A program made the position numbers and the translations under genes. From Candidatus Nomurabacteria bacterium (lineage in GTDB: Bacteria > Patescibacteriota > Minisyncoccia > Phycocordibacterales > UBA9973), in the NCBI GenBank assembly GCA_023267435.1, contig JAHFNH010000002.1, positions 88,706-152,705 on the forward strand: a DNA stretch of 64,000 bases, written 5' to 3'. Positions within the stretch are counted from its first letter, which is position 1. Each line of letters starts with the position of its first letter. Shown piece by piece: positions 26 through 63,967 of this stretch. The notes beneath the pieces were generated by a model that saw only the letters and a list, made by a program, of their open reading frames with translations, was not told the origin of the DNA and searched no databases.

Positions 26-60
26 AGACCGATATTAATATTAATATCGGTCTTTTTTTA
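26..60. terminator. Intrinsic terminator hairpin (agaccgatattaatattaatatcggtct) with flanking A/T runs; usable on both strands
   Basis: Perfect inverted repeat read directly from sequence, followed by T-run; sits just 3' of minus-strand ORF 58..498. Confidence 0.7.
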
Positions 61-498
61 TTTCCTTCCAATTTGATAAATCAGTTTACCAAAAGTGCCA
101 AAAGTAAATCTGGCATCTAGGGCAATAAATTCAGAATGTTCATTGTATATAACATTTATCAATTCAAAACTCCCATGTATATAAGGAGATTCTTCACTGA
201 AAATATTTTTTGCCCTGATAAACTTATCAGTCGGTTCTACAATTCTTGCATTTAATATTTCATGATTAATAAATGTATGAGTCCCCTGTGTTCCCTTAGT
301 AGGACGTTCAAACCATAAAGACAAAACAGTATTTGTAACTTTGAGAAAGAAGAGGTAATCAATAGCGTCATAATATAGCTTGTTTGGAACTAAACAAAAT
401 TCTATACTAGTTTGCTTTTTTGTAAAATCATCATGAATACTGTACACAAGTAAGGAATATTCAGAGTTTTCTGATAGTTTTAGAATTTTTGTTTCCAT
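58..498 (-). CDS. Hypothetical protein (146 aa)
   Basis: ORF track; preceded on minus strand by TTGACT -35 of bidirectional promoter module at 558..589; terminator at 26..60. Confidence 0.55.
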   Translation of the reverse strand: METKILKLSENSEYSLLVYSIHDDFTKKQTSIEFCLVPNKLYYDAIDYLFFLKVTNTVLSLWFERPTKGTQGTHTFINHEILNARIVEPTDKFIRAKNIFSEESPYIHGSFELINVIYNEHSEFIALDARFTFGTFGKLIYQIGRK

Positions 499-557
499 TT
501 TATAGAGCTAAAATTGTTTAAGGACTACGTTTATTTACTTTAAAACTACCAAGAAAT

Positions 558-589
558 CATTTACAAGTCAATATATTTGTGATATTGTG
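558..589. promoter_or_regulatory. Bidirectional promoter module copy A: TTACAAGTCAA palindrome (divergent -35 hexamers) plus TGaTATTGT extended -10 toward gene 634..984
   Basis: Near-identical to module at 56318..56353 (catttaTTGACtcGTCAAtatttttgTGaTATTGT); -35/-10 spacing 16-17 nt on both strands. Confidence 0.6.
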
Positions 590-633
590 TATTTGAAAAA
601 ATAATTGTTTTTAAACATAAAAAGGAGGTAAAT

Positions 634-984
634 ATGCTAATAAAACTTATAAGTTCACATATGGGTGGACATACAGTAATTGAATTTCAATCTGAAAAAA
701 ATATCTACAGAATGGGAACATTTTGTTCTCAAATTCCGGGCCAGATAAATTCAAATGATTTTTTTGAAATTCCCGATGAGTTTATGAAAAAGGAATTGGG
801 TCTTACTGAAAATCAGAATCCGTTAAAATGGTATACGGATGAGGATAAAAAAGCTAAAAACAATGCATCTGAAAGCAACAATCTTTTTGAAAAATTTATG
901 GATGCAGTAGCTAAATTTTGTAATTATGATCGAAAAGGAGAAATGGAAAAACGGCAGAGATGGTATGAAAGTAATTTTGGATAA
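634..984 (+). CDS. Hypothetical protein (116 aa)
   Basis: ORF with strong Shine-Dalgarno aaaaGGAGGtaaatATG; terminator follows at 1000..1030. Confidence 0.6.
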   Translation: MLIKLISSHMGGHTVIEFQSEKNIYRMGTFCSQIPGQINSNDFFEIPDEFMKKELGLTENQNPLKWYTDEDKKAKNNASESNNLFEKFMDAVAKFCNYDRKGEMEKRQRWYESNFG

Positions 985-2822: not shown

Positions 2823-2987
2823 TTATCCAGTCATTTTTGCTTCTTTGTGTTTAGTCTTCTTTCTGCAAGTTTTACAGAACTTTAAAAGCTCAATCTTTTT
2901 AGGAACGAGTTTTTTGTTCTTACTAGTATAGTAATTAGCATTTTTACAAACGCTGCATTTTAATCTAAAAAGTCTATCTTGGGACAT
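2823..2987 (-). CDS. rpmG: 50S ribosomal protein L33 (54 aa), missed by the ORF track because <60 aa
   Basis: Translation MSQDRLFRLKCSVCKNANYYTSKNKKLVPKKIELLKFCKTCRKKTKHKEAKMTG has the L33 CxxC...CxxC zinc-ribbon pattern; classic rpmG-tRNA-Trp synteny. Confidence 0.8.
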   Translation of the reverse strand: MSQDRLFRLKCSVCKNANYYTSKNKKLVPKKIELLKFCKTCRKKTKHKEAKMTG

Positions 2988-3010
2988 GGTTCTAGGATAA
3001 TATAAAACGC

Positions 3011-3036
3011 TTAAAAAAGCAACCTTAATAAAGGTT
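3011..3036 (-). terminator. Terminator after alr (minus: aaccTTTATTAaggtt + gctttttt)
   Basis: Hairpin plus U-run directly 3' of alr stop. Confidence 0.6.
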
Positions 3037-16688: not shown

Positions 16689-16720
16689 GATTTTTCTTTT
16701 TTGTAAATTAAAAAAATTAA

Positions 16721-16767
16721 GGCGTCGTGGGTCCCCTTTCCTATCTTTTCAGAGGGCGAAGGCGCAG
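16721..16767. repeat. E1 repeat element, intergenic copy between atpF and atpE
   Basis: ggcgtcgtgggtcccctttcctatcttttcagagggcgaaggcgcag; two further copies lie in-frame in the FAD oxidase gene (23470..23514, 23929..23973). Confidence 0.85.
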
Positions 16768-16800
16768 AATTTTTTTAAATTTATAAAAAACTTATAAAAA

Positions 16801-18857: not shown

Positions 18858-18950
18858 TCTTATATTTCTCCCGTTTTTTAAAAATCGGGCAAAAACTATT
18901 TATAATGCGTAGATACTCTTACCGCTCAATTGGCTTAATTGGTGCCTAAC

Positions 18951-18986
18951 AATCGCCTCATCGGCGATCTGCCGTAGAGGCAGATC
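18951..18986. repeat. E2 repeat element, intergenic copy between the RRM gene and prfA
   Basis: aatcgccTCATCggcgatctgccGTAGAggcagatc. Confidence 0.85.
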
Positions 18987-22479: not shown

Positions 22480-24282
22480 CTATACCCCATGGTGTGGTTT
22501 TGGGTGTTCTATGGCTAAATGGCTTGCAACGTATTCTTTGGTGCCCATACCTCCCTGAGGCAGTGCGATCTTTTTACCAGGATTGAAAATATTTTTGGGA
22601 TCAAAGATATTCTTAACTTCACCAAATAAAGCATAAATTTTCTCGCCGTACATTTTTTCCAAATATGGCGTACGGATTATTCCATCATTATGTTCCGCGG
22701 TAATAGAACCTTCATAATCTAAAACTAAATCATAAACCTTTTCGGAAAGCTCAGTTATAATTTCAGCTGTATTGCTCCGACTAAAATCCATCAAGGGGAT
22801 AATATGAAAATTACCATCACCTGCGTGTCCGGCAATCGTATATTCTAAATTATAATTTTTCAAAATATTATTAAGTTCTGGAATAAATTTCGGTAAGAAT
22901 TCTGGACGAACAATAATGTCATCGATAAATGGCGCAGTACGTTTTCCAGAAACATGTTTGCGTAATAGATTAAAGCTCTCACGTCTAATGTCCCAATATT
23001 TCCCTGCTTCAGCTTCTGTTTTAGTAATGTGCACTTCTAGTTTAAAATCTTTTATTTTTTCTTTCAAACTTAAACACTGCTTATTTACTTCTGTATCATC
23101 GTCACTAGCAAATTCAGCTAATAAAATTAATTTCGGAAATCCGCCCGTAATCATCATTTTTAATTCCGGCAAGAAACTCCACATGAATTTTATCATTCCA
23201 AAAAATCCTTTAGTCTTTAAAAAATCTGGGAAAAATCGCACTGCAAGCTTCATAGTCTTATCGTCATAAGTTTCCAATGTCTCAAGGTTCGTTTCTAAAA
23301 TAGAATCTACAAGTTTACCCAATGGCGCTAAATCATTCATGAAAATAACCACAAGTTTCGAATGTTTTGGATTTTTAACAAGTTTGAAAGTTATTTCTGT
23401 GGCTATGCCTAAAGTTCCTTGTGAACCTACGAGTAATTTATTCAGATTAAAGACCGGCAAAGAATTTTTAGCGTCGTGGGTTCCCTGTCCTATGTCTCCG
23501 AGGGCGAAGGCGCCTAAATTCTTTGCTGGTTGGTTCTCTATAACATTCCAAAGATAATATCCAGCAGAATTCTTATGAACTTTTGGTTTTGCATTATTTA
23601 TTTCTTCTTGATTATTTTTTATTAAATCATAAAGTTTTTTATAATTTTCTTCTTTCTGTGAAATTTCACTTAAAGGAAAAGATTTCACAACTCTTTCCAC
23701 TCCATCTGAGAAAACAACTTTCGCTTCCATAACATAATCTTCCGTCTTGCCATATTTCAAAGTTCTTTCACCAGCAGAATTATTACCATACATTCCACCC
23801 ATCGCATTGAGACTTTTTGACGCTGTATAACAAGGTAAAATTAAACCTTCGGCTAAAGTTATCTTTTCAAAATCTCGGTAAAACGTTCCAGGCTGAACGG
23901 TAATAGTACTCTCCAGTAAAGGATTTTTAGAGTCGTGGGTTCCCTGTCCTTTGTCTCCGAGGGCGAAGGCTCCAAAATCCTTTACTGGAGAGAAGGACAC
24001 CAACTTATTCATATATTTAGTGAAATCTAAAATAATAGATTCATTTATCGCCCCACCAGACATATCTGTACCAGCGCAACGAGCTGTAATTGAGAGTTCT
24101 GGATACTTGGTTTTATTTTCATTTACCCATTTCACTAAATTCTGTACATCTTCTGAATCTTTTGGAAAAACAACTAACTTTGGTCTAACTTCAAAAATAC
24201 TCGCATCATGCGAATATTTTTTGAGAGTTTCTTCACTATCATCCACATCTCCCCTGAAAAATTTTTTAATTTCTTCTTTCAC
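22480..24282 (-). CDS. FAD-linked oxidase (GlcD / D-lactate dehydrogenase family) carrying two in-frame E1-element insertions
   Basis: FAD-binding PCMH-type region (RCAGTDMSGGA), C-terminal HAGDGNFH motif. Two 15-aa insertions GAFALGD(I/K)GQGTHD(A/S) are encoded by the E1 repeat. Confidence 0.8.
   Translation of the reverse strand: MKEEIKKFFRGDVDDSEETLKKYSHDASIFEVRPKLVVFPKDSEDVQNLVKWVNENKTKYPELSITARCAGTDMSGGAINESIILDFTKYMNKLVSFSPVKDFGAFALGDKGQGTHDSKNPLLESTITVQPGTFYRDFEKITLAEGLILPCYTASKSLNAMGGMYGNNSAGERTLKYGKTEDYVMEAKVVFSDGVERVVKSFPLSEISQKEENYKKLYDLIKNNQEEINNAKPKVHKNSAGYYLWNVIENQPAKNLGAFALGDIGQGTHDAKNSLPVFNLNKLLVGSQGTLGIATEITFKLVKNPKHSKLVVIFMNDLAPLGKLVDSILETNLETLETYDDKTMKLAVRFFPDFLKTKGFFGMIKFMWSFLPELKMMITGGFPKLILLAEFASDDDTEVNKQCLSLKEKIKDFKLEVHITKTEAEAGKYWDIRRESFNLLRKHVSGKRTAPFIDDIIVRPEFLPKFIPELNNILKNYNLEYTIAGHAGDGNFHIIPLMDFSRSNTAEIITELSEKVYDLVLDYEGSITAEHNDGIIRTPYLEKMYGEKIYALFGEVKNIFDPKNIFNPGKKIALPQGGMGTKEYVASHLAIEHPKPHHGV
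23470..23514. repeat. E1 repeat element, in-frame copy inside the FAD oxidase
   Basis: agcgtcgtgggttccctgtcctatgtctccgagggcgaaggcgcc. Confidence 0.85.
23929..23973. repeat. E1 repeat element, second in-frame copy inside the FAD oxidase
   Basis: agagtcgtgggttccctgtcctttgtctccgagggcgaaggctcc. Confidence 0.85.
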
Positions 24283-34101: not shown

Positions 34102-34240
34102 TTTGCATACCGTATTAAATTAACAAATTACATTATGTCCTTTTAAGGACATGGCCGATATCGTGGAATCGGTTACCTTTACCATTTATTTTACACTACA
34201 ACTTACTTTCTAATTTAGCAAGAAAAAATTCTAAATACCT

Positions 34241-34281
34241 TTATATTACTTATAATAAGGTTCCAATTCCGTCCCGTTTGG
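34241..34281. repeat. 41-nt direct repeat R1 (ttatattacttataataaGGTTCCAATTCCGTCCCGTTTGG) downstream of the secreted-protein cassette
   Basis: 36/41 identical to R2 at 34952..34992. Confidence 0.8.
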
Positions 34282-34329
34282 CTCACAAAAAGATACTTAT
34301 ACGAAAAGTATCAATACCTATCTTTCAAT

Positions 34330-34358
34330 AAAAAAACGCACCATTTAAGATGCGCTCT
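34330..34358 (-). terminator. Terminator of gene 34374..34826 (minus: agcgcatcttaaatggtgcg + U-run)
   Basis: Imperfect hairpin plus T-run. Confidence 0.55.
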
Positions 34359-34373
34359 AATAATTTTATTTAT

Positions 34374-34826
34374 TTAAAACCAATCACCAATTTTACCCTT
34401 AACTCCGAGAGGAGCTTTGTCATCATAAAAATGAACAAAATAATCCTCTACCTTAAGATTAAAATCTTTCCATTTAATCAGAAAGTTTGGATATTCTTTA
34501 CTGTATCGAGAATCTTTAGAAAAAAAATCAATCGGGTATATTTTTGATTCTCCTTTCTTAAGGACATCTCCTTCAGCAATACCACCTGTATGCCACATCT
34601 GTGTTTTCATGTATGGTTCATAATAATAACCACTTTTTGTGCCAACAATAACTTTCTCACATAATAAATTGGTAATTCCCCAGTATTTCTTACCATCTTT
34701 TTGTAAAACACAAATTTTTATACTATCGTTATTTATTTTTTTAATTGCGTAAGTGGTGTAAGTTTTTTGACCAAATACAAGCATACAGGACAACATATAA
34801 GTTGTCAGAATAATTAGTGTTTTCAT
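34374..34826 (-). CDS. Secreted hypothetical protein (150 aa, signal peptide)
   Basis: N-terminal MKTLIILTTYMLSCMLVFGQ; own promoter and terminator; flanked by R1/R2. Confidence 0.6.
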   Translation of the reverse strand: MKTLIILTTYMLSCMLVFGQKTYTTYAIKKINNDSIKICVLQKDGKKYWGITNLLCEKVIVGTKSGYYYEPYMKTQMWHTGGIAEGDVLKKGESKIYPIDFFSKDSRYSKEYPNFLIKWKDFNLKVEDYFVHFYDDKAPLGVKGKIGDWF

Positions 34827-34874
34827 TTTATTTAAGGTTTTTAAAGAAGTTAATACTTATTTCTATCTAAATTC

Positions 34875-34905
34875 AGATTACCATATAAATCATTGACTTG
34901 TCAAT
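34875..34905. promoter_or_regulatory. Bidirectional promoter module copy D: TTGACttGTCAA with TGgTAATCT extended -10 toward gene 34374..34826
   Basis: Same architecture as modules A, B, C. Confidence 0.6.
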
Positions 34906-34951
34906 TATTACGTGGGTACAACTCAATGTGTAAGTACAACACCGAAATTAC

Positions 34952-34992
34952 TTATATTTCTTACTATAAAGTTCCAATTCCGTCCCGTTTGG
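34952..34992. repeat. 41-nt direct repeat R2 upstream of the secreted-protein cassette
   Basis: ttatatttcttactataaaGTTCCAATTCCGTCCCGTTTGG. Confidence 0.8.
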
Positions 34993-35002
34993 GACACAGA
35001 AA

Positions 35003-35037
35003 ATAAAAAAGACCTAACAAATGTGTTAGGTCTTTTG
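35003..35037. terminator. Bidirectional terminator (aagacctaacaaatgtgttaggtctt)
   Basis: Hairpin with A/T flanks, 3' of gene 35057..35554. Confidence 0.75.
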
Positions 35038-35056
35038 AGTGCAATTCATACATGGA

Positions 35057-45455: not shown

Positions 45456-45478
45456 AATTTTTTATTCATTTATTTTTA

Positions 45479-45528
45479 TCCCACTCTTTCCCACTTACTA
45501 CACATTATAAACCACTATCCCCCACAAT
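45479..45528 (-). promoter_or_regulatory. MraZ operator: direct GTGGG repeats at ~10-bp spacing overlapping a TTTATAAT -10 box (minus strand)
   Basis: Minus strand reads GTGGGggata GTGGTTTATAATgtgtagtaa GTGGGaaaga GTGGGat. Confidence 0.65.
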
Positions 45529-45655
45529 GCCAAAGTCTTTACTGTGGATAACTAAAAACAACATTTCCATCTTTATGTTGCAATTTAAGTTTTTTATTGT
45601 ATTATGAGACTTAGACAAATAAATTCTTCACAAACCTATAAAAACATATAGAAAA

Positions 45656-53015: not shown

Positions 53016-53561
53016 TTAGTTGTATTGCATTCTACCTTGAAAATGAATTTGTAATTTCTTAACTGATTCATGTAAATCGAAAGTTTGATCGTCTTTTTTT
53101 TCGAATACTATTTTTATAAGTTCCGCATCTTGTGTGTTTTTTTCTTTTTGTAAATTTTTCTGTTTTTGCAGATCTTTAATCATTGAAAATAAAAGAGGGG
53201 CAAGGTCTTCGAATATACATTCATAATGACATATTTTTCCCTTACCAAAAATTTCTTCTCTGTAATTGCCAGTCGCAATTAACTTTCCCTTGAATTCCTC
53301 GTCTGATCGCATTTGTTTTACAAAAGGTAGAGTTTCAGCATGACGACAATTTTCCAAAATCGAAGTAATTATTACAAAGTCTAACTTATTCTTATTTAAC
53401 TCAAAAATTTCTTTAGCACTTTTTAACGATTTTGCTCGTAATAAATTGCAAAAATTTCCAATTTTAATTTCACACTGTCCGTAAAGATAAGAACTGGTTA
53501 TAATTACAAGAACATTTACATCTTTAGTAAATTGTCCGTCTGGTTTATTTTCTTTTGTCAT
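53016..53561 (-). CDS. Hypothetical protein, possibly a degenerate receiver-like (pseudo-REC) domain
   Basis: The ORF as given (to 53705) overlaps tRNA-Ser, so the start is moved to Met-49. Alternating hydrophobic-strand/helix pattern (…VNVLVIITSS…LDFVIITSI…). Confidence 0.45.
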   Translation of the reverse strand: MTKENKPDGQFTKDVNVLVIITSSYLYGQCEIKIGNFCNLLRAKSLKSAKEIFELNKNKLDFVIITSILENCRHAETLPFVKQMRSDEEFKGKLIATGNYREEIFGKGKICHYECIFEDLAPLLFSMIKDLQKQKNLQKEKNTQDAELIKIVFEKKDDQTFDLHESVKKLQIHFQGRMQYN

Positions 53562-55645: not shown

Positions 55646-55713
55646 AATATAGAAAATAAAAAAAACACCCCTAATTAACAAGAGTGTTTTATACTTAAAC
55701 TAGAACGAAAATT

Positions 55714-56187
55714 TTATTTACTATCCAATAAATTCTTAACCGCCATTTTTATTTTACCATCTAAAAATATAGATAAATTTGGATCACCATCATGAGAAGT
55801 TCCTGGACATGGTAAATTTAAAAAATCTTCCCAACGAATATATCTTCCTTGATAAGCAGAATTGCCTCCATATCTTTCAATCAACCATTCTGACCCATTA
55901 GGACAATAATCAGATAAACCAAATGCACCACTGAGAGCTTTTTTATTAAGAATTATTATTCCCTCAATACTTTCCCTAATAGAAAACCTTATTTCGTATT
56001 TTAATTGGAATTTGCCTTTTTCTTCTTCTTTCGTAATAGTTAAATTGGCAACATCACCATTTTTAAGATATACATAAACATCACTACTAACAACAACCTT
56101 CATTTTTATTCCGTGACGATTATACCAATCAGGAAAAAATGAATTAGAAAGTTTTGGAATTTTTGATTTTACAGTTTGTGTTTCCAT
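55714..56187 (-). CDS. Hypothetical protein (157 aa)
   Basis: ORF; divergent partner of 56400..56822, sharing promoter module B. Confidence 0.5.
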   Translation of the reverse strand: METQTVKSKIPKLSNSFFPDWYNRHGIKMKVVVSSDVYVYLKNGDVANLTITKEEEKGKFQLKYEIRFSIRESIEGIIILNKKALSGAFGLSDYCPNGSEWLIERYGGNSAYQGRYIRWEDFLNLPCPGTSHDGDPNLSIFLDGKIKMAVKNLLDSK

Positions 56188-56317
56188 TTTTTTAGTTTTT
56201 AGTTAGACATAAATTTAGTTAATTTTCTCAACCCTCATAAAGGAGCTGGGAAAATCAACCAAATAGCCTGCTAAAACAAATATTTCAAACAACTGAATCT
56301 TGTCATTATATTATCAA

Positions 56318-56353
56318 ACATTTATTGACTCGTCAATATTTTTGTGATATTGT
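56318..56353. promoter_or_regulatory. Bidirectional promoter module copy B: TTGACtcGTCAA palindrome; TGaTATTGT extended -10 (plus) and TAATAT -10 (minus)
   Basis: catttaTTGACtcGTCAAtatttttgTGaTATTGT; 17-nt spacers on both strands. Confidence 0.65.
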
Positions 56354-56399
56354 TTGGATAAATAAATTTGTTATTGTTAAACCTTAAAAACTAAATATC

Positions 56400-56822
56400 A
56401 TGTTAAACATAAATCGTTTCAATAATGAAACTAAGGAAATCATCAATCTGATAATCAATTGTTGGCCAATGCGGTACGCTGGCAAAAATGAAAACGTCCA
56501 AAAAGATATTGAAAAAACGATCAAGAATCTTAAACGGATGAGGAAAGAAAACCTCAATGGTATTCTTAGTCTTGGTGGTTCAATTGAAGAATATCTTGAT
56601 GCACTTGCCATTTGCGAGAAAAACAAAGAATTATTATCACAAGCCATATTTTCAAGCTTTATTGCAGAAAAGAAAAAAATTGAAATGTACCAAAGATTTC
56701 AAAATGCCAAACTTGGTTTAATTGAAGAACTGCTTGAACGTAAACAAATTACTTCCAGAACAGCTCAATACTTAAGACGATGGAAAAGTTTGGGTAAGGG
56801 TTCAGAAAGTTCATTTATTTGA
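56400..56822 (+). CDS. Hypothetical protein (140 aa), TGA stop
   Basis: ORF downstream of module B. Confidence 0.55.
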   Translation: MLNINRFNNETKEIINLIINCWPMRYAGKNENVQKDIEKTIKNLKRMRKENLNGILSLGGSIEEYLDALAICEKNKELLSQAIFSSFIAEKKKIEMYQRFQNAKLGLIEELLERKQITSRTAQYLRRWKSLGKGSESSFI

Positions 56823-56920
56823 TACATGGTTTAAATTAAAGCTCCACAGAAATGTGAGAGCTTTTTTATTTTCCTAAAATATTTGATAATTTACTAAAAA
56901 ATAGCTATTATAGGTTACAT

Positions 56921-56993: not shown

Positions 56994-57107
56994 CAAAAGG
57001 CTTATTTTTTAAGCATATTAAAGGGCTTGACAAGTTGTATATTATCTGATATACTTGGTTCAGATAAGATCATTAAACCAAAAAACAAGTCCTGCTGAGT
57101 CAAGTAG

Positions 57108-57452
57108 GTGGGCAAAAGAAAAATGAAAAAGAAAGTAAAAGTTTTCGCAATGACCATTGGGTTTTTTGCACTAATTGCATTAGTACAAATAAATTTAGCT
57201 GGAGGGATCACTTCCGATAATATGATTGCTACCGGTGTTTACATGTTTGCTGGAATAGCGTTAGGATTTTTATTATGTTCTCCTTTCAGTAAAAAGGAAG
57301 TAAATAAAGATGTAACTACCGCTATCAGGACAAGTAACAAACCGGTACACTTCAGAGATATCAAATACCGAAACATTAAAGGACAAAGAAATGTGAGAAG
57401 TACTGAAAAATCTTTGCAAGTATCAGAATGTGACATAGCGATGCGAAATTAA
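57108..57452 (+). CDS. Small membrane protein (114 aa)
   Basis: Two TM helices; strong terminator follows. Confidence 0.5.
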   Translation: MGKRKMKKKVKVFAMTIGFFALIALVQINLAGGITSDNMIATGVYMFAGIALGFLLCSPFSKKEVNKDVTTAIRTSNKPVHFRDIKYRNIKGQRNVRSTEKSLQVSECDIAMRN

Positions 57453-57457
57453 AATTA

Positions 57458-57492
57458 GGGGTTCATGAAATAATTCATGAACCCCTTTTTAT
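57458..57492 (+). terminator. Strong terminator (ggggttcatgaaataattcatgaacccc + T-run)
   Basis: 12-bp perfect stem. Confidence 0.85.
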
Positions 57493-57579: not shown

Positions 57580-58677
57580 ATGACATATATGAAAATACTC
57601 GCAATCGAAACATCCTGCGACGAAACAGGAATAAGTATATTGGAAATAAAAGGAGGAATTAAAAATCCTTCTTTTAGAGTTTTGGCGGACAGCTTGAATT
57701 CTCAAATAAAAATACACGCTCCTTTCGGTGGAGTGTACCCCATGCTAGCCAAAAGAGAACATCAAAAAAATCTTCCGATTTTATTTGAAAGAACATTAAA
57801 AAAAGCGGGTAAAAAAATCGCCTCTTCGGCGATCCGCCGTAGAGGCGGAAAACTATTTGATTTAATAGCTGTCACTTCCGGCCCAGGCCTCGAACCTGCA
57901 CTTTGGACAGGAATAATGTTCGCGCAAGAACTAGCTAAAAAATGGAAAGTTCCCATTGTACCAGTTAATCATATGGAAGGTCATATTCTTTCTGTATTTG
58001 GAAAACAAAAAGGTGAATTCTCCATTCCAAAAATAAAATTCCCTATTCTTTCCTTGCTTGTTTCCGGCGGACATACGGAATTGGTGCTTTCAAAAGATTG
58101 GATGAAATACGAAGTCATCGGCGAGACACTGGATGATGCAGCTGGAGAGGCTTTTGATAAAGTTGCCAGAATGCTCGAACTTCCCTATCCTGGCGGACCG
58201 GAAATTTCAAAGCTGGCAGAACAAGGCAGGAAAACTTTTAAAAATCTTCCGGAAGAAATAAAATTACCTCGCCCGATGATGTACAGTAAAAATTTTGATT
58301 TTTCTTTTTCTGGATTAAAAACTGCCGTATTATACCTAACTCAGAAAATTGGAAAATTAAACGACAAAACTAAAAAGCAGATAGCAACAGAATTTGAAAA
58401 TGCCGTAGTTGAAACTTTAATTTACAAAACAAAAAAAGCTATAGAAAAATACAATATCAAAACAATCGTGGTGGCGGGCGGGGTATCTTCTAATAAACAT
58501 TTAAGAAAAGAAATAAAAAAAATGGTAGGGTTGAAACAAAAAATTCTATTTCCTGGCAAAAAACTTTCTACCGATAATTCTGTGATGATAGGCATAACAG
58601 GATATTTCAGATTTATAAAAAAAGGAAAAAAAATCGGCGCCTCAAAAATAAAAGCTGAAGGATATATGCACCTTTAA
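57580..58677 (+). CDS. tsaD: tRNA N6-adenosine threonylcarbamoyltransferase TsaD (Kae1/Gcp) carrying an in-frame E2-element insertion
   Basis: ILAIETSCDETGISI start and HMEGH metal motif. The 12-aa insert IASSAIRRRGGK sits just before the conserved IAVTSGPG and is encoded by the E2 repeat. Confidence 0.88.
   Translation: MTYMKILAIETSCDETGISILEIKGGIKNPSFRVLADSLNSQIKIHAPFGGVYPMLAKREHQKNLPILFERTLKKAGKKIASSAIRRRGGKLFDLIAVTSGPGLEPALWTGIMFAQELAKKWKVPIVPVNHMEGHILSVFGKQKGEFSIPKIKFPILSLLVSGGHTELVLSKDWMKYEVIGETLDDAAGEAFDKVARMLELPYPGGPEISKLAEQGRKTFKNLPEEIKLPRPMMYSKNFDFSFSGLKTAVLYLTQKIGKLNDKTKKQIATEFENAVVETLIYKTKKAIEKYNIKTIVVAGGVSSNKHLRKEIKKMVGLKQKILFPGKKLSTDNSVMIGITGYFRFIKKGKKIGASKIKAEGYMHL
57815..57852. 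repeat. E2 repeat element, in-frame copy inside tsaD
   Basis: aaatcgccTCTTCggcgatccgccGTAGAggcggaaaa. Confidence 0.85.
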
Positions 58678-62049: not shown

Positions 62050-62056
62050 CATAAAA

Positions 62057-62283
62057 TAAAAACCCCACCAACTATGTTGATGGGGTTGCCTCTGCGATAG
62101 AGCACAGGTCTAAGCCGATTTAGCCATAAAATCACAAACAGGACAAAATCGGGTCTTTGATCGCGTTCAATGTTTCCCTTGAGAGCGAGAACGCCATTAG
62201 CAATAAGGGGTAACTGTCCAAGTCGTAGAGTTCACTCACGACTATGCTGATCCGTTACATCGATTTACCAGCCCCCATAGATT
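62057..62283 (-). ncRNA. Candidate ~220-nt small RNA: minus-strand promoter from module C (TTGACA-17-TAATCT), ORF-free and GC-elevated, ending at the hairpin + U-run at 62063..62085
   Basis: Promoter and terminator are both oriented for the minus strand; no ORF longer than 21 codons. Confidence 0.4.
62063..62085. terminator. Hairpin (ccccaccaactatgttgatgggg); a U-run follows only on the minus strand
   Basis: 10-bp stem with one mismatch. Confidence 0.65.
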
Positions 62284-62295
62284 AGCATAATTAAC

Positions 62296-62324
62296 TTGAC
62301 TTGTCAATATTTTTATGCTAGTAT
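62296..62324. promoter_or_regulatory. Bidirectional promoter module copy C: TTGACttGTCAA, TGcTAGTAT extended -10 toward gene 62425..62787
   Basis: Same architecture and spacer sequence as modules A and B. Confidence 0.6.
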
Positions 62325-62424
62325 CAGTTTAGATTGAATTTGTTGGATTTTTATCCGTTAAATTAATAAACCCGATATATATTCCCTCAACTTATTTTAT
62401 TTAACCTTTTAAAACTTAAGAAAC

Positions 62425-62787
62425 ATGAAATTTAAAGATATTAATTTTAACTTCGACAAACTTAGGGAAAATTTCCTTTCTTTATTAAAAGAAGAAGTAT
62501 CTCCCCTTTTTGAGAATGCTGTTCAAGATGAACAAAGTAAAGCGGACGATTTTATTAATTACGACATTATTTGGTCCTTCACTGCTAAAAATAAAAGTCG
62601 TGAAGTTACAATAGATTGCACTAAAAACAAAGGAGTGGCTGTTGGTTTTGATAGAGAAAACTCTGATATTTATTACTGTTCTAAAAGCATGAGCGTACTG
62701 GAATTTCAAAGAGTAATTCCTGACATAAAAGCATATCTAAAAAATGGCAAGGTTAATTATGACAAATTTGAAAAACAGGAATTGTAA
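62425..62787 (+). CDS. Hypothetical protein (120 aa)
   Basis: ORF downstream of module C. Confidence 0.55.
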   Translation: MKFKDINFNFDKLRENFLSLLKEEVSPLFENAVQDEQSKADDFINYDIIWSFTAKNKSREVTIDCTKNKGVAVGFDRENSDIYYCSKSMSVLEFQRVIPDIKAYLKNGKVNYDKFEKQEL

Positions 62788-62805
62788 AAATTAAATCTGT
62801 TTTTA

Positions 62806-62837
62806 AAAGCACTGAATCAATCAGTGCTTTTTTAATT
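62806..62837. terminator. Bidirectional terminator (agcactgaatcaatcagtgct) between convergent genes
   Basis: Hairpin plus T-run. Confidence 0.7.
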
Positions 62838-63221
62838 ATCTGCGTGATTTGAAAGGGCTTTTTTTACAATTTTTATAAATTCTTCAGCCTCAATTGATTT
62901 TGGTATGCATCCCAACACCCCCAGCTCTTTTACTGCTTTTTCTTCTTCAATTGATAAATCTACATTAGTTAAGAAAATAATTGGAATATTAGAAGTTTCT
63001 TTTTCCTCTTTTAGTAAACTGGAAGTTTTTATACCATCCATCACAGGCATGTTTATATCCATCAAGATAAGATCTGGTTGAAAGCGTCGTGCTATTTCTC
63101 GTCCCTCATTGCCATCCTTTCCATATAAAACCTCAAATCCAGCAGAAGCTAATTTGGAGCCGAAGAACCGACGATTTATCTCATCTTCATCAACAAGGAG
63201 AATGTGAATTTTTTTATCCAT
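62832..63221 (-). CDS. Stand-alone response-regulator receiver (CheY-like) protein
   Basis: ILLVDEDE…PDLILMDINMPVMDG REC motifs; start set to MDKKIHILLVDED. Confidence 0.8.
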   Translation of the reverse strand: MDKKIHILLVDEDEINRRFFGSKLASAGFEVLYGKDGNEGREIARRFQPDLILMDINMPVMDGIKTSSLLKEEKETSNIPIIFLTNVDLSIEEEKAVKELGVLGCIPKSIEAEEFIKIVKKALSNHADN

Positions 63222-63304
63222 ATTTTTATTATAACAATAAAATTTTAATATGCGAAATAAATTTGCTTTTTCTTGCACACTTTATGTGTTAGATTATTAA
63301 ATAA

Positions 63305-63376
63305 GTCTTCGTAGTTAAATGGATATAACGACTCCGTCCTAAGGAGTAGTTGCAGGTTCGATTCCTGCCGAGGACA
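63305..63376 (+). tRNA. trnR: tRNA-Arg (anticodon CCU)
   Basis: Hand fold: acceptor GTCTTCG/CGAGGAC, anticodon loop GTCCTAA, T-arm GCAGG-TTCGATT-CCTGC. Confidence 0.8.
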
Positions 63377-63473
63377 CAAGAGAAATAAACTGCTTTATTT
63401 CGAGCAGAAATCGAAAAGCTTTTCGTTCTCTGATGAAATCAGAGCGAAAAGGTATACTGTTCCTGTAAGGAAA

Positions 63474-63493
63474 GATTCCTGCCGAGGACACAA
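63474..63493 (+). repeat. 20-bp exact direct repeat of the tRNA-Arg 3' end (gattcctgccgaggacacaa), ~95 bp downstream of the tRNA
   Basis: Identical to 63359..63378. Confidence 0.8.
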
Positions 63494-63536
63494 ATTTAAA
63501 ATTGGCTTTTTATAAGTCTTATGCTAAAATACCATT

Positions 63537-63797
63537 ATGGATCCTGAATCAAAGCAATTACTTGAAAATACATACGCATTATCCGAGGAGAATAATAAAA
63601 TGCTTCACAGCATGAGACGTGCGCAAAAAATCGCATCTTTTATGCGTGTAATGTATTGGATAGTTATTATTGCCATCACTTTTGGATCTTATTATTTCTT
63701 GCAACCATATGTGACGCAATTGCAGAAATTTATGCAGGATTCCGGTGCTAGTATTGATCAATTAAAAAATATAGGTAATTATTTACCTAAAAAATAA
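63537..63797 (+). CDS. Small membrane protein (86 aa)
   Basis: One TM helix; ORF only. Confidence 0.45.
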   Translation: MDPESKQLLENTYALSEENNKMLHSMRRAQKIASFMRVMYWIVIIAITFGSYYFLQPYVTQLQKFMQDSGASIDQLKNIGNYLPKK

Positions 63798-63880
63798 ACA
63801 CGCAAGCCGAGATGACTGTTTTGGTTGATAACGCCAAATAAAGAAAATAAGTTAAAAAGTTTTGAAAATAAAATAAACAT

Positions 63881-63953
63881 GCCGAGATAGCTCAGTTGGT
63901 AGAGCGCTCCCCTGAAGAGGGATAGGTCCCCAGTTCGACCCTGGGTCTCGGCA
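63881..63953 (+). tRNA. trnF: tRNA-Phe (anticodon GAA)
   Basis: Hand fold: GCCGAGATAGCTCAGTTGGTAGAGC…, anticodon loop CTGAAGA, T-arm CCCAG-TTCGACC-CTGGG. Confidence 0.88.
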
Positions 63954-63967
63954 CATAAAAACAATAA

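Follow-up and report, generated by a model that had tools for sequence, protein, structure and literature searches.

Paired -35 boxes as the probable core of a duplicated two-way promoter module in a 64-kb bacterial window

We found that four intergenic sites built on the palindrome TTGACnnGTCAA are best explained as paralogous modules of ~90 nt, at which a housekeeping sigma-70-type polymerase would be directed by abutting -35 hexamers and could start in either direction, though not in both at once. To this reading we assign a probability of roughly two in three. In such a module two near-consensus -35 hexamers on opposite strands abut exactly, with TTGACn followed directly by nGTCAA, and it is because of this exact abutment that a 12-bp palindrome appears. 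Each hexamer but one is paired with its own TGn-extended -10 at a distance of 17 (once 18) nt, the whole forming two divergent predicted promoters whose start sites lie 59 bp apart. The modules would drive short, mostly monocistronic accessory units and one candidate RNA, and the units of modules B and C appear to sit in strain-specific inserts adjoining tRNA genes.

The window, by which we mean the whole stretch of 64 kb that was analysed, belongs to a small bacterial chromosome of ~35% G+C. It encodes FtsA/FtsZ, a Mur ligase, a penicillin-binding protein and an F-type ATP synthase, together with several aminoacyl-tRNA synthetases, TsaD, RF-1 and GatB, and contains eight scattered tRNA genes. 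Judged by its genes and by the sources of the nearest loci and motif matches, the organism very probably belongs to the candidate phyla radiation (Patescibacteria).

Results

All four copies that a sequence-only reading of the window had reported were located, and all of them are intergenic. They are listed here as modules A to D, followed by their half-sites, which are written as -35 hexamer, spacer and extended -10.

543..588, both strands: core of module A, with the minus-strand -10 TGGTAGTTT at 551-543, the near-palindrome TTTACAAGTCAA at 560-571 and the plus-strand -10 TGATATTGT at 580-588; predicted start sites ~536 (-) and ~595 (+)
56308..56353, both strands: core of module B, with the minus-strand -10 TGATAATAT at 56316-56308, the palindrome TTGACTCGTCAA at 56325-56336 and the plus-strand -10 TGATATTGT at 56345-56353; predicted start sites ~56301 (-) and ~56360 (+)
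62279..62324, both strands: core of module C, with the minus-strand -10 TGCTAATCT at 62287-62279, the palindrome TTGACTTGTCAA at 62296-62307 and the plus-strand -10 TGCTAGTAT at 62316-62324; predicted start sites ~62272 (-) and ~62331 (+)
34875..34904, - strand: module D, with the palindrome TTGACTTGTCAA at 34893-34904 and the minus-strand extended -10 TGGTAATCT at 34883-34875 (spacer 18); predicted start site ~34868 (-)

Half-site A+: TTTACA-17-TGATATTGT
Half-site A-: TTGACT-17-TGGTAGTTT
Half-site B+: TTGACT-17-TGATATTGT
Half-site B-: TTGACG-17-TGATAATAT
Half-site C+: TTGACT-17-TGCTAGTAT
Half-site C-: TTGACA-17-TGCTAATCT
Half-site D-: TTGACA-18-TGGTAATCT
Half-site D+: no usable -10, though the perfect TTGACT hexamer is kept

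All eight half-sites match TTGACA at 5 or 6 of 6 positions, and a TGnTAnnnT extended -10 stands on the proper strand of 7 out of 8, six times at a spacer of 17 and once, in D-, at 18. The 17-nt spacing claimed for all copies is therefore correct for A, B and C, while D deviates by one nucleotide. With TGn and TAnnnT at 16-18 nt, these seven half-sites have the composition of a sigma-70-type promoter with an extended -10, which D+ lacks, and a separate scan for the promoter consensus picks out B+, B- and C+ too, each with the TG. At the level of sequence the modules may thus rightly be called bidirectional, each of the seven equipped half-sites facing a transcription unit. In A, B and C the predicted divergent start sites are 59 bp apart, and the -10 boxes flank the -35 pair at a mutual distance of 28-29 bp. 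The -10 hexamers themselves are weak (TATTGT, TAGTAT, TAATCT, TAGTTT). A T is found just outside the half-site in seven of the eight cases (ATTGAC..GTCAAT), and across the four copies 38 of the 40 core positions equal the consensus, whereas spacers and -10 boxes vary.

We detected the exact palindrome TTGACNNGTCAA, which is the TTGACnnGTCAA palindrome, three times in the 64 kb (34893, 56325, 62296), far above the random frequency of 0.11 expected copies, and none of 100 dinucleotide shuffles reached three. The 12-bp palindrome that had been ascribed to four copies is hence exact in B, C and D, and copy A at 560 has TTTACAAGTCAA with one mismatch. When one mismatch is allowed, seven sites appear against 2.5 expected; among these only the four modules A-D are intergenic and promoter-like, and the remaining three one-mismatch matches fall within genes and look like chance. 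Additionally, the probability of meeting a TGnTAnnnT at a set spacing by chance, estimated from base composition, is below 1% per half-site. The palindrome modules are real and non-random in the window.

The ordinary promoters of the window follow another style. In intergenic DNA we counted 51 TGnTAnnnT sites, those before tRNA genes among them; a -35 matching at 5 or more of 6 positions accompanies just 12 of the 51, and module half-sites make up 7 of these 12. The general pattern is a TGnTATAAT-like extended -10 with a weak -35 (TTGnnn or worse), so that two good -35 boxes per copy exceed the needs of ordinary promoters here. The modules, which join a consensus -35 to a weak -10, are the reverse of the housekeeping and tRNA promoters, and this could indicate an alternative sigma-70-family factor with a need for a strong -35, for which the modules would be a promoter class of their own and serve a separate accessory-gene programme. 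We consider such a factor improbable. The primary sigma-70 promoter consensus is the basis on which elements and spacing of the modules are judged, and they fit it exactly; moreover, the -35/TG/-10 make-up is shared by four other promoters of the window that are not palindromic (9919, 36941, 53630, 57027), and the 64-kb window revealed no sigma factor gene.

We then asked how closely the copies resemble each other beyond the promoter itself, bearing in mind that, of the 31 nt from the -35 to the -10, about half are already dictated by the promoter elements. A and B share 26 of 31 positions (84%) from -35 to -10, 22 of 24 (92%) from GTCAA on and 73% over 56 nt without gaps, values that replace the figure of about 90% over ~38 nt given earlier. 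The two remain alike in the leader as well, until ~40 nt beyond the -10, and B and C resemble each other from the opposite -10 through the dyad and the -10 to ~45 nt of leader. Relatedness was judged by the real distribution of intergenic pairs (1640 alignments) and not by shuffle z-scores, because control promoters reach z values of 4-6 against mononucleotide shuffles, which overstates relatedness. The scores of A/B (52) and B/C (49) are the second and third best of the 1640, the 99th percentile being 33, and C/D- (38) and A/D- (37) come just above that percentile. Furthermore, a profile of the four main arms gives 50-58 bits on its own copies and otherwise finds only their opposite arms in the window. 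The leaders concerned are the following.

589..633, + strand: leader of A+, similar to the B+ leader for ~40 nt past the -10
56354..56399, + strand: leader of B+, similar to the A+ and C+ leaders
62325..62424, + strand: leader of C+, of which the first ~45 nt resemble the B+ and D- leaders
34827..34874, - strand: leader of D- (GAATTTAGATAGAAATAA...), similar to the C+ leader
34173..34184: decayed paralogue of the D palindrome (TTACCTTTACCA), in a tandem duplicate ~711-720 bp from D

Because A, B and C stay alike past the promoter elements and into the transcribed leader, they are paralogous modules, and the earlier description of the module as duplicated stands. D is by the same measure a looser member of the family. 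Two other candidates were rejected. A fifth module at 57027 (TTGACAAGTTGT...) has no similarity to the others beyond the promoter elements, and paralogy of the flanking genes as the cause of the common upstream DNA fails, since BLASTP gave nothing between the neighbours of A and B or among all window proteins. Around D we also observed a tandem duplication at 34102-35056 with a period of ~711-720 bp. It includes a 51-nt repeat (34241-34291 / 34952-35002, 86% identical), which lies ~50 nt from the D palindrome and beside the decayed copy, at about -100 to -50 of minus-strand promoters.

Six of the seven equipped half-sites face short genes and one, C-, faces a terminator-bounded candidate RNA. 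The units that the modules are predicted to serve are these.

58..498, - strand: 146-aa hypothetical gene, served by A-
634..984, + strand: 116-aa hypothetical gene with a strong Shine-Dalgarno, served by A+
55714..56187, - strand: 157-aa gene of a large, widespread, uncharacterised family, served by B-, with its own terminator at 55690-55662
56400..56822, + strand: 140-aa orphan gene, served by B+
62425..62787, + strand: 120-aa hypothetical gene, served by C+, with a terminator at 62805-62831
62056..62272, - strand: candidate non-coding RNA, served by C-, with an intrinsic terminator at 62087-62061 and then a T run
34374..34826, - strand: 150-aa gene with an apparent signal peptide, served by D-

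Modules A and B each lie between two divergent short genes, and the opposite-strand -10 boxes that had been proposed for them, facing these genes, are indeed present as A- and B- at spacer 17; likewise, the minus-strand extended -10 of D that should serve 34374..34826 was found. Start codons follow the promoters by 40-210 nt (~95 nt for C+, ~115 nt for B-). Terminator-like hairpins end the units of B-, C+ and C-, and because of these hairpins the B- and C+ units look monocistronic. The genes had been described as small unrelated hypotheticals. They are mutually unrelated by BLASTP, but 55714-56187 belongs to a large family, although an uncharacterised one. Its product shows only moderate resemblance to the Whirly fold, and none of the compared loci contains a family member. 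The 140-aa B+ gene has no homologue among 5.8 billion proteins, and the D- gene has one homologue elsewhere, with 54% identity. Searches of the flanking genes returned no Pfam, PHROG or PDB sequence relatives and one insignificant PADLOC match.

The C- promoter had been thought to point into an ORF-free region. There is indeed no credible ORF, but the stretch is not featureless: since a strong intrinsic terminator ends it after ~215 nt, we regard it as a candidate non-coding RNA. It would begin ~7 nt past the C- extended -10 (GGGGGCUGG...) and end, directly behind the HSP20 gene, with a 12-pair hairpin followed by TTTATTTT. Its G+C is ~45% against a background of 30%, and its folding z-score is only -2.3. 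Rfam gave nothing credible for the C- RNA or for the D+ side, and the candidate RNA has no counterpart in 80 related loci.

Two features of the leaders were observed in passing. Genes at 56400, 62425, 34826(-), 498(-) and 53561(-) have no Shine-Dalgarno and a AACCTTAAA-like motif 8-30 nt before the ATG, and TAGCTCTAT stands just before the start codon in the leaders of both A- and the gene 53016-53561.

For comparison with relatives we collected the 80 closest loci by way of valyl-tRNA synthetase (56-84% identity), amounting to 984 kb, largely from groundwater and similar metagenomes. In these 984 kb the exact palindrome occurs twice, both times at one position inside the synthetase gene, and never in intergenic DNA. 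None of the 17 sites with at most one mismatch resembles a promoter, none of 34 TTGAC promoters with an extended -10 is palindromic or paired, and a search with the module profile gave nothing (best E-value 0.33). Judged from these 80 loci, the module family appears to be private to the source genome. The synteny comparison covers B and C, as the relatives' loci stop short of A and D. B lies within 55650-56915 and C within 62050-63280, two stretches for which no relative has matching DNA, even though the tRNA and housekeeping genes on either side can be aligned; the closest relative has a glutamate dehydrogenase-like gene in the slot of B. The genes of these islands have a G+C of 0.31 versus 0.36 elsewhere (p = 4e-5). 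A phage or defence origin of the islands was considered and is unsupported, with no nucleotide match in 50,697 phage records, no PHROG and no meaningful PADLOC match.

Compared with relatives L031-L036, L075 and L104, the region 62050-63960 is locally rearranged: in the relatives HSP20 is directly followed by tRNA-Phe(-), an 86-aa gene(-) and tRNA-Arg(+), and in the window a 1.2-kb insert follows HSP20, with the 86-aa gene and tRNA-Phe inverted and placed beyond tRNA-Arg. Between tRNA-Val and TsaD there are an extra 590 nt, with an orphan gene (57123-57452), its promoter at 57027 and a terminator at 57457-57486. Elsewhere we noted G+C-rich palindromic repeat families (23454-23529, 23913-23988 and 16710-16776; also 18948-18984 and 57813-57849). 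Two of these repeats lie inside an uninterrupted FAD-linked oxidase ORF and are translated in frame (..GAFALGD(I/K)GQGTHD(A/S)KN..), and a third is intergenic; their closing stems vary by compensatory changes, and Rfam holds no match for them. Another small repeat family has one copy inside TsaD, where a loop exceeds that of the closest relative by 6 aa. The repeats in the FAD oxidase and in TsaD are reminiscent of Rickettsia palindromic elements.

Related copies, inserts beside tRNA genes and other palindromic repeat families in the same window are what one would also see if the four sites derived from a small mobile element with outward promoters, as its remnants or its ends; a MITE or an insertion-sequence end would be candidates. 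This we regard as highly improbable. The similarity is restricted to ~90 nt of promoter and leader; outside the core the arms are not significantly alike, apart from A+/B+; and neither terminal inverted repeats nor target-site duplications, defined ends or a transposase were seen.

The symmetry of the palindrome can be read in yet another way. The 14-bp dyad ATTGACnnGTCAAT may also, or even mainly, be a putative operator at which a dimeric protein binds, perhaps a winged-helix repressor of the MarR/ArsR type, which by sitting over both -35 boxes would shut off both directions and so control a small, co-regulated accessory set of strain-specific, recently acquired orphan genes and a novel small RNA. 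We think this unlikely. An added operator role is kept alive because the conservation of the modules exceeds that of the genome's ordinary promoters, which need no good -35. The near-invariant core amid variable spacers and -10 boxes fits an operator, as does the flanking T, which a -35 role leaves unexplained, and the D+ half-site has been kept without any -10. A dyad of 12-14 bp does lie over both -35 boxes. Against an operator stands the missing protein: MraZ apart, the 64 kb encode neither a helix-turn-helix protein nor any other candidate regulator, and Pfam, PHROGs, PADLOC and PDB sequence searches revealed no DNA-binding domain in the six flanking genes, so that none of the modules adjoins or drives a regulator gene. 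Near none of the four modules is there a second dyad, and every conserved half-site except D+ is already accounted for as a -35 box. Moreover, the half-site centres are 7 bp apart, which is short for most helix-turn-helix dimers. The palindrome is also absent from the relatives' intergenic DNA, from the promoter of the sole homologue of the D- gene and from upstream of a B- family member, on the one contig with upstream DNA. As the homologues of these two driven genes lack the palindrome, there is no conserved regulon, and the small accessory regulon suggested earlier finds no support beyond the shared module. As for MraZ, we observed repeated GTGGG motifs (gtggggg..agtggt..aagtggg..agtggg) in the region 45456-45655 upstream of its own gene, which is what one would expect of MraZ autoregulation.

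Further evidence comes from foreign genomes. We scanned one genome per species for 185,579 species with a pattern that fixes one side only (TTKACNNGTCAATATNTTTNTGNTA), and obtained 27 sites, mostly in Clostridia and two in candidate-phyla bacteria, before unrelated genes; outside Firmicutes-like genomes the matches are confined to Nomurabacteria and Paceibacterota. Of the 26 testable foreign sites, 9 have a TAnnnT at spacer 17 on the unconstrained strand and 6 have a TGnTAnnnT there at spacer 17 or 18, versus counts of ~1 and ~0, respectively, at all other spacings from 8 to 39. Because the opposite-strand -10 falls specifically at spacer 17, the palindrome seems to recur as the core of bidirectional promoters. 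Conservation of the module across phyla was nevertheless rejected: the 27 sites precede unrelated genes and match the module profile only over the core, with 15-27 bits compared with 50-58 for the window copies. With the match restricted to the promoter core, we take the foreign sites to be convergent analogues and not homologues. No paper turned up when the literature was searched for the palindrome as a string.

Several of the foreign sites deserve mention on their own. An extended -10 on both sides of the dyad was seen in L006, L008 and L018, all from the Oscillospiraceae MAG Th196P3bin104, and in L013 and L017, from candidate-phyla MAGs. The three two-way sites of the termite-gut genome Th196P3bin104 precede unrelated genes (PhoU, a six-cysteine peptide, an epimerase), and the genes flanking L013 and L017 encode small proteins without known families. 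A pattern scan of viral contigs gave 8 contigs with one match each, 7 of them with the same or nearly the same flanks. L111-L117 (IMG/VR) represent one conserved promoter, in which TTGACTTGTCAA is flanked by the forced extended -10 and, on the opposite side, by TATTTT at spacer 17.

Two foreign sites speak for the operator. In L003, a Clostridiales MAG (JAAVYP010000061.1), two TTGACnnGTCAA dyads 44 bp apart (2967-3022) precede a MarR-family gene, one over the -35 and the other just downstream of the -10. Dyads over a promoter before the regulator's own gene are the classic layout of an autoregulated repressor, and from its arrangement this pair is likely an autoregulatory operator pair. In L002 (Sporosarcina) the same palindrome precedes an ArsR-family gene. 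The earlier reading had left two options for the palindrome, overlapping -35 boxes or an operator. Taken together, and chiefly in view of the spacer-17 -10 boxes at the foreign sites, the data favour a plain pair of -35 boxes.

Discussion

From the order and spacing of the promoter elements we infer that initiation takes place at the modules, in both directions, and that polymerases compete there. In the predicted geometry each -35 lies within the spacer of the other promoter (-29 to -24) and the opposite -10 at about -47 to -52, because of which the two promoters would mutually occlude each other: a polymerase bound in one orientation would cover the opposite promoter and the two directions would compete. 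The weak -10 hexamers make it plausible that each side of a module depends on a strong -35.

The modules would be the signals from which strain-specific accessory genes, along with one candidate small RNA, are expressed. Since units lie in tRNA-adjoining inserts, the modules may offer a handle on how newly acquired genes are expressed in very small genomes. The practical value of a compact 46-bp two-way promoter core is modest. Were the operator reading true, it would point to a regulator in a Patescibacteria-like group with very few known regulators.

The feature is fairly ordinary in being a variant of known divergent promoters, and the modules fit the older, broad notion of overlapping divergent promoters. 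In the E. coli pairs tetA/tetR and bioA/bioB, overlapping divergent promoters are governed by a known repressor at defined operators, the regulator usually being one of the divergent pair. As there, the divergent promoters of the modules overlap in a short intergenic region, and one bound protein could affect both. In contrast, the dyad of the modules is the -35 pair itself, and no regulator was found within the 64-kb window. With palindromic winged-helix operators, such as the probable L003 pair and the AdcR/ZitR site TTAACnnGTTAA, the modules share a 12-bp dyad with a 2-nt centre over the -35. They differ in that they have no adjacent regulator gene and no second copy, and in that each half-site, D+ excepted, has its own -10.

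Reuse of similar promoters before unrelated genes of one genome also recalls the putative mobile promoters of Matus-Garcia, Nijveen and van Passel (2012), which are at least 80% identical over 50-100 nt and lie upstream of non-homologous genes (PMC3488235). The best pair here, A/B, stays below that threshold, as its identity is 84% over only 31 nt and falls to 73% over 56 nt. With identity under 80% over at least 50 nt, the module copies would be older or more diverged than putative mobile promoters.

The closest comparison is with the symmetry-based bidirectional promoters described by Warman, Grainger and colleagues, in which a symmetrical -10 is shared and the -35 elements lie outside, with start sites mostly 18 bp and also 10 or 23 bp apart (PMC12825309, PMC10268837). 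For E. coli promoters that share a -10, mutually exclusive two-way use was shown experimentally (PMC12825309). Like these, A, B and C are pseudo-symmetrical sequences that offer the polymerase two orientations; the competition and divergent mRNAs known there we infer for the modules. Unlike these, the modules share no -10: their centre of symmetry is the -35 pair, the -10 boxes lie outside, and the predicted starts are 59 bp apart. If the start sites are confirmed, the modules would be a second way to build a symmetrical two-way promoter, with the -35 pair in common and 59 instead of 18 bp between starts. Since Clostridia and other candidate-phyla bacteria have the -35-pair layout too, it may be common without having been recognised, and -35-sharing promoters with starts 59 bp apart may constitute a general, as yet undescribed class beside the -10-sharing one.
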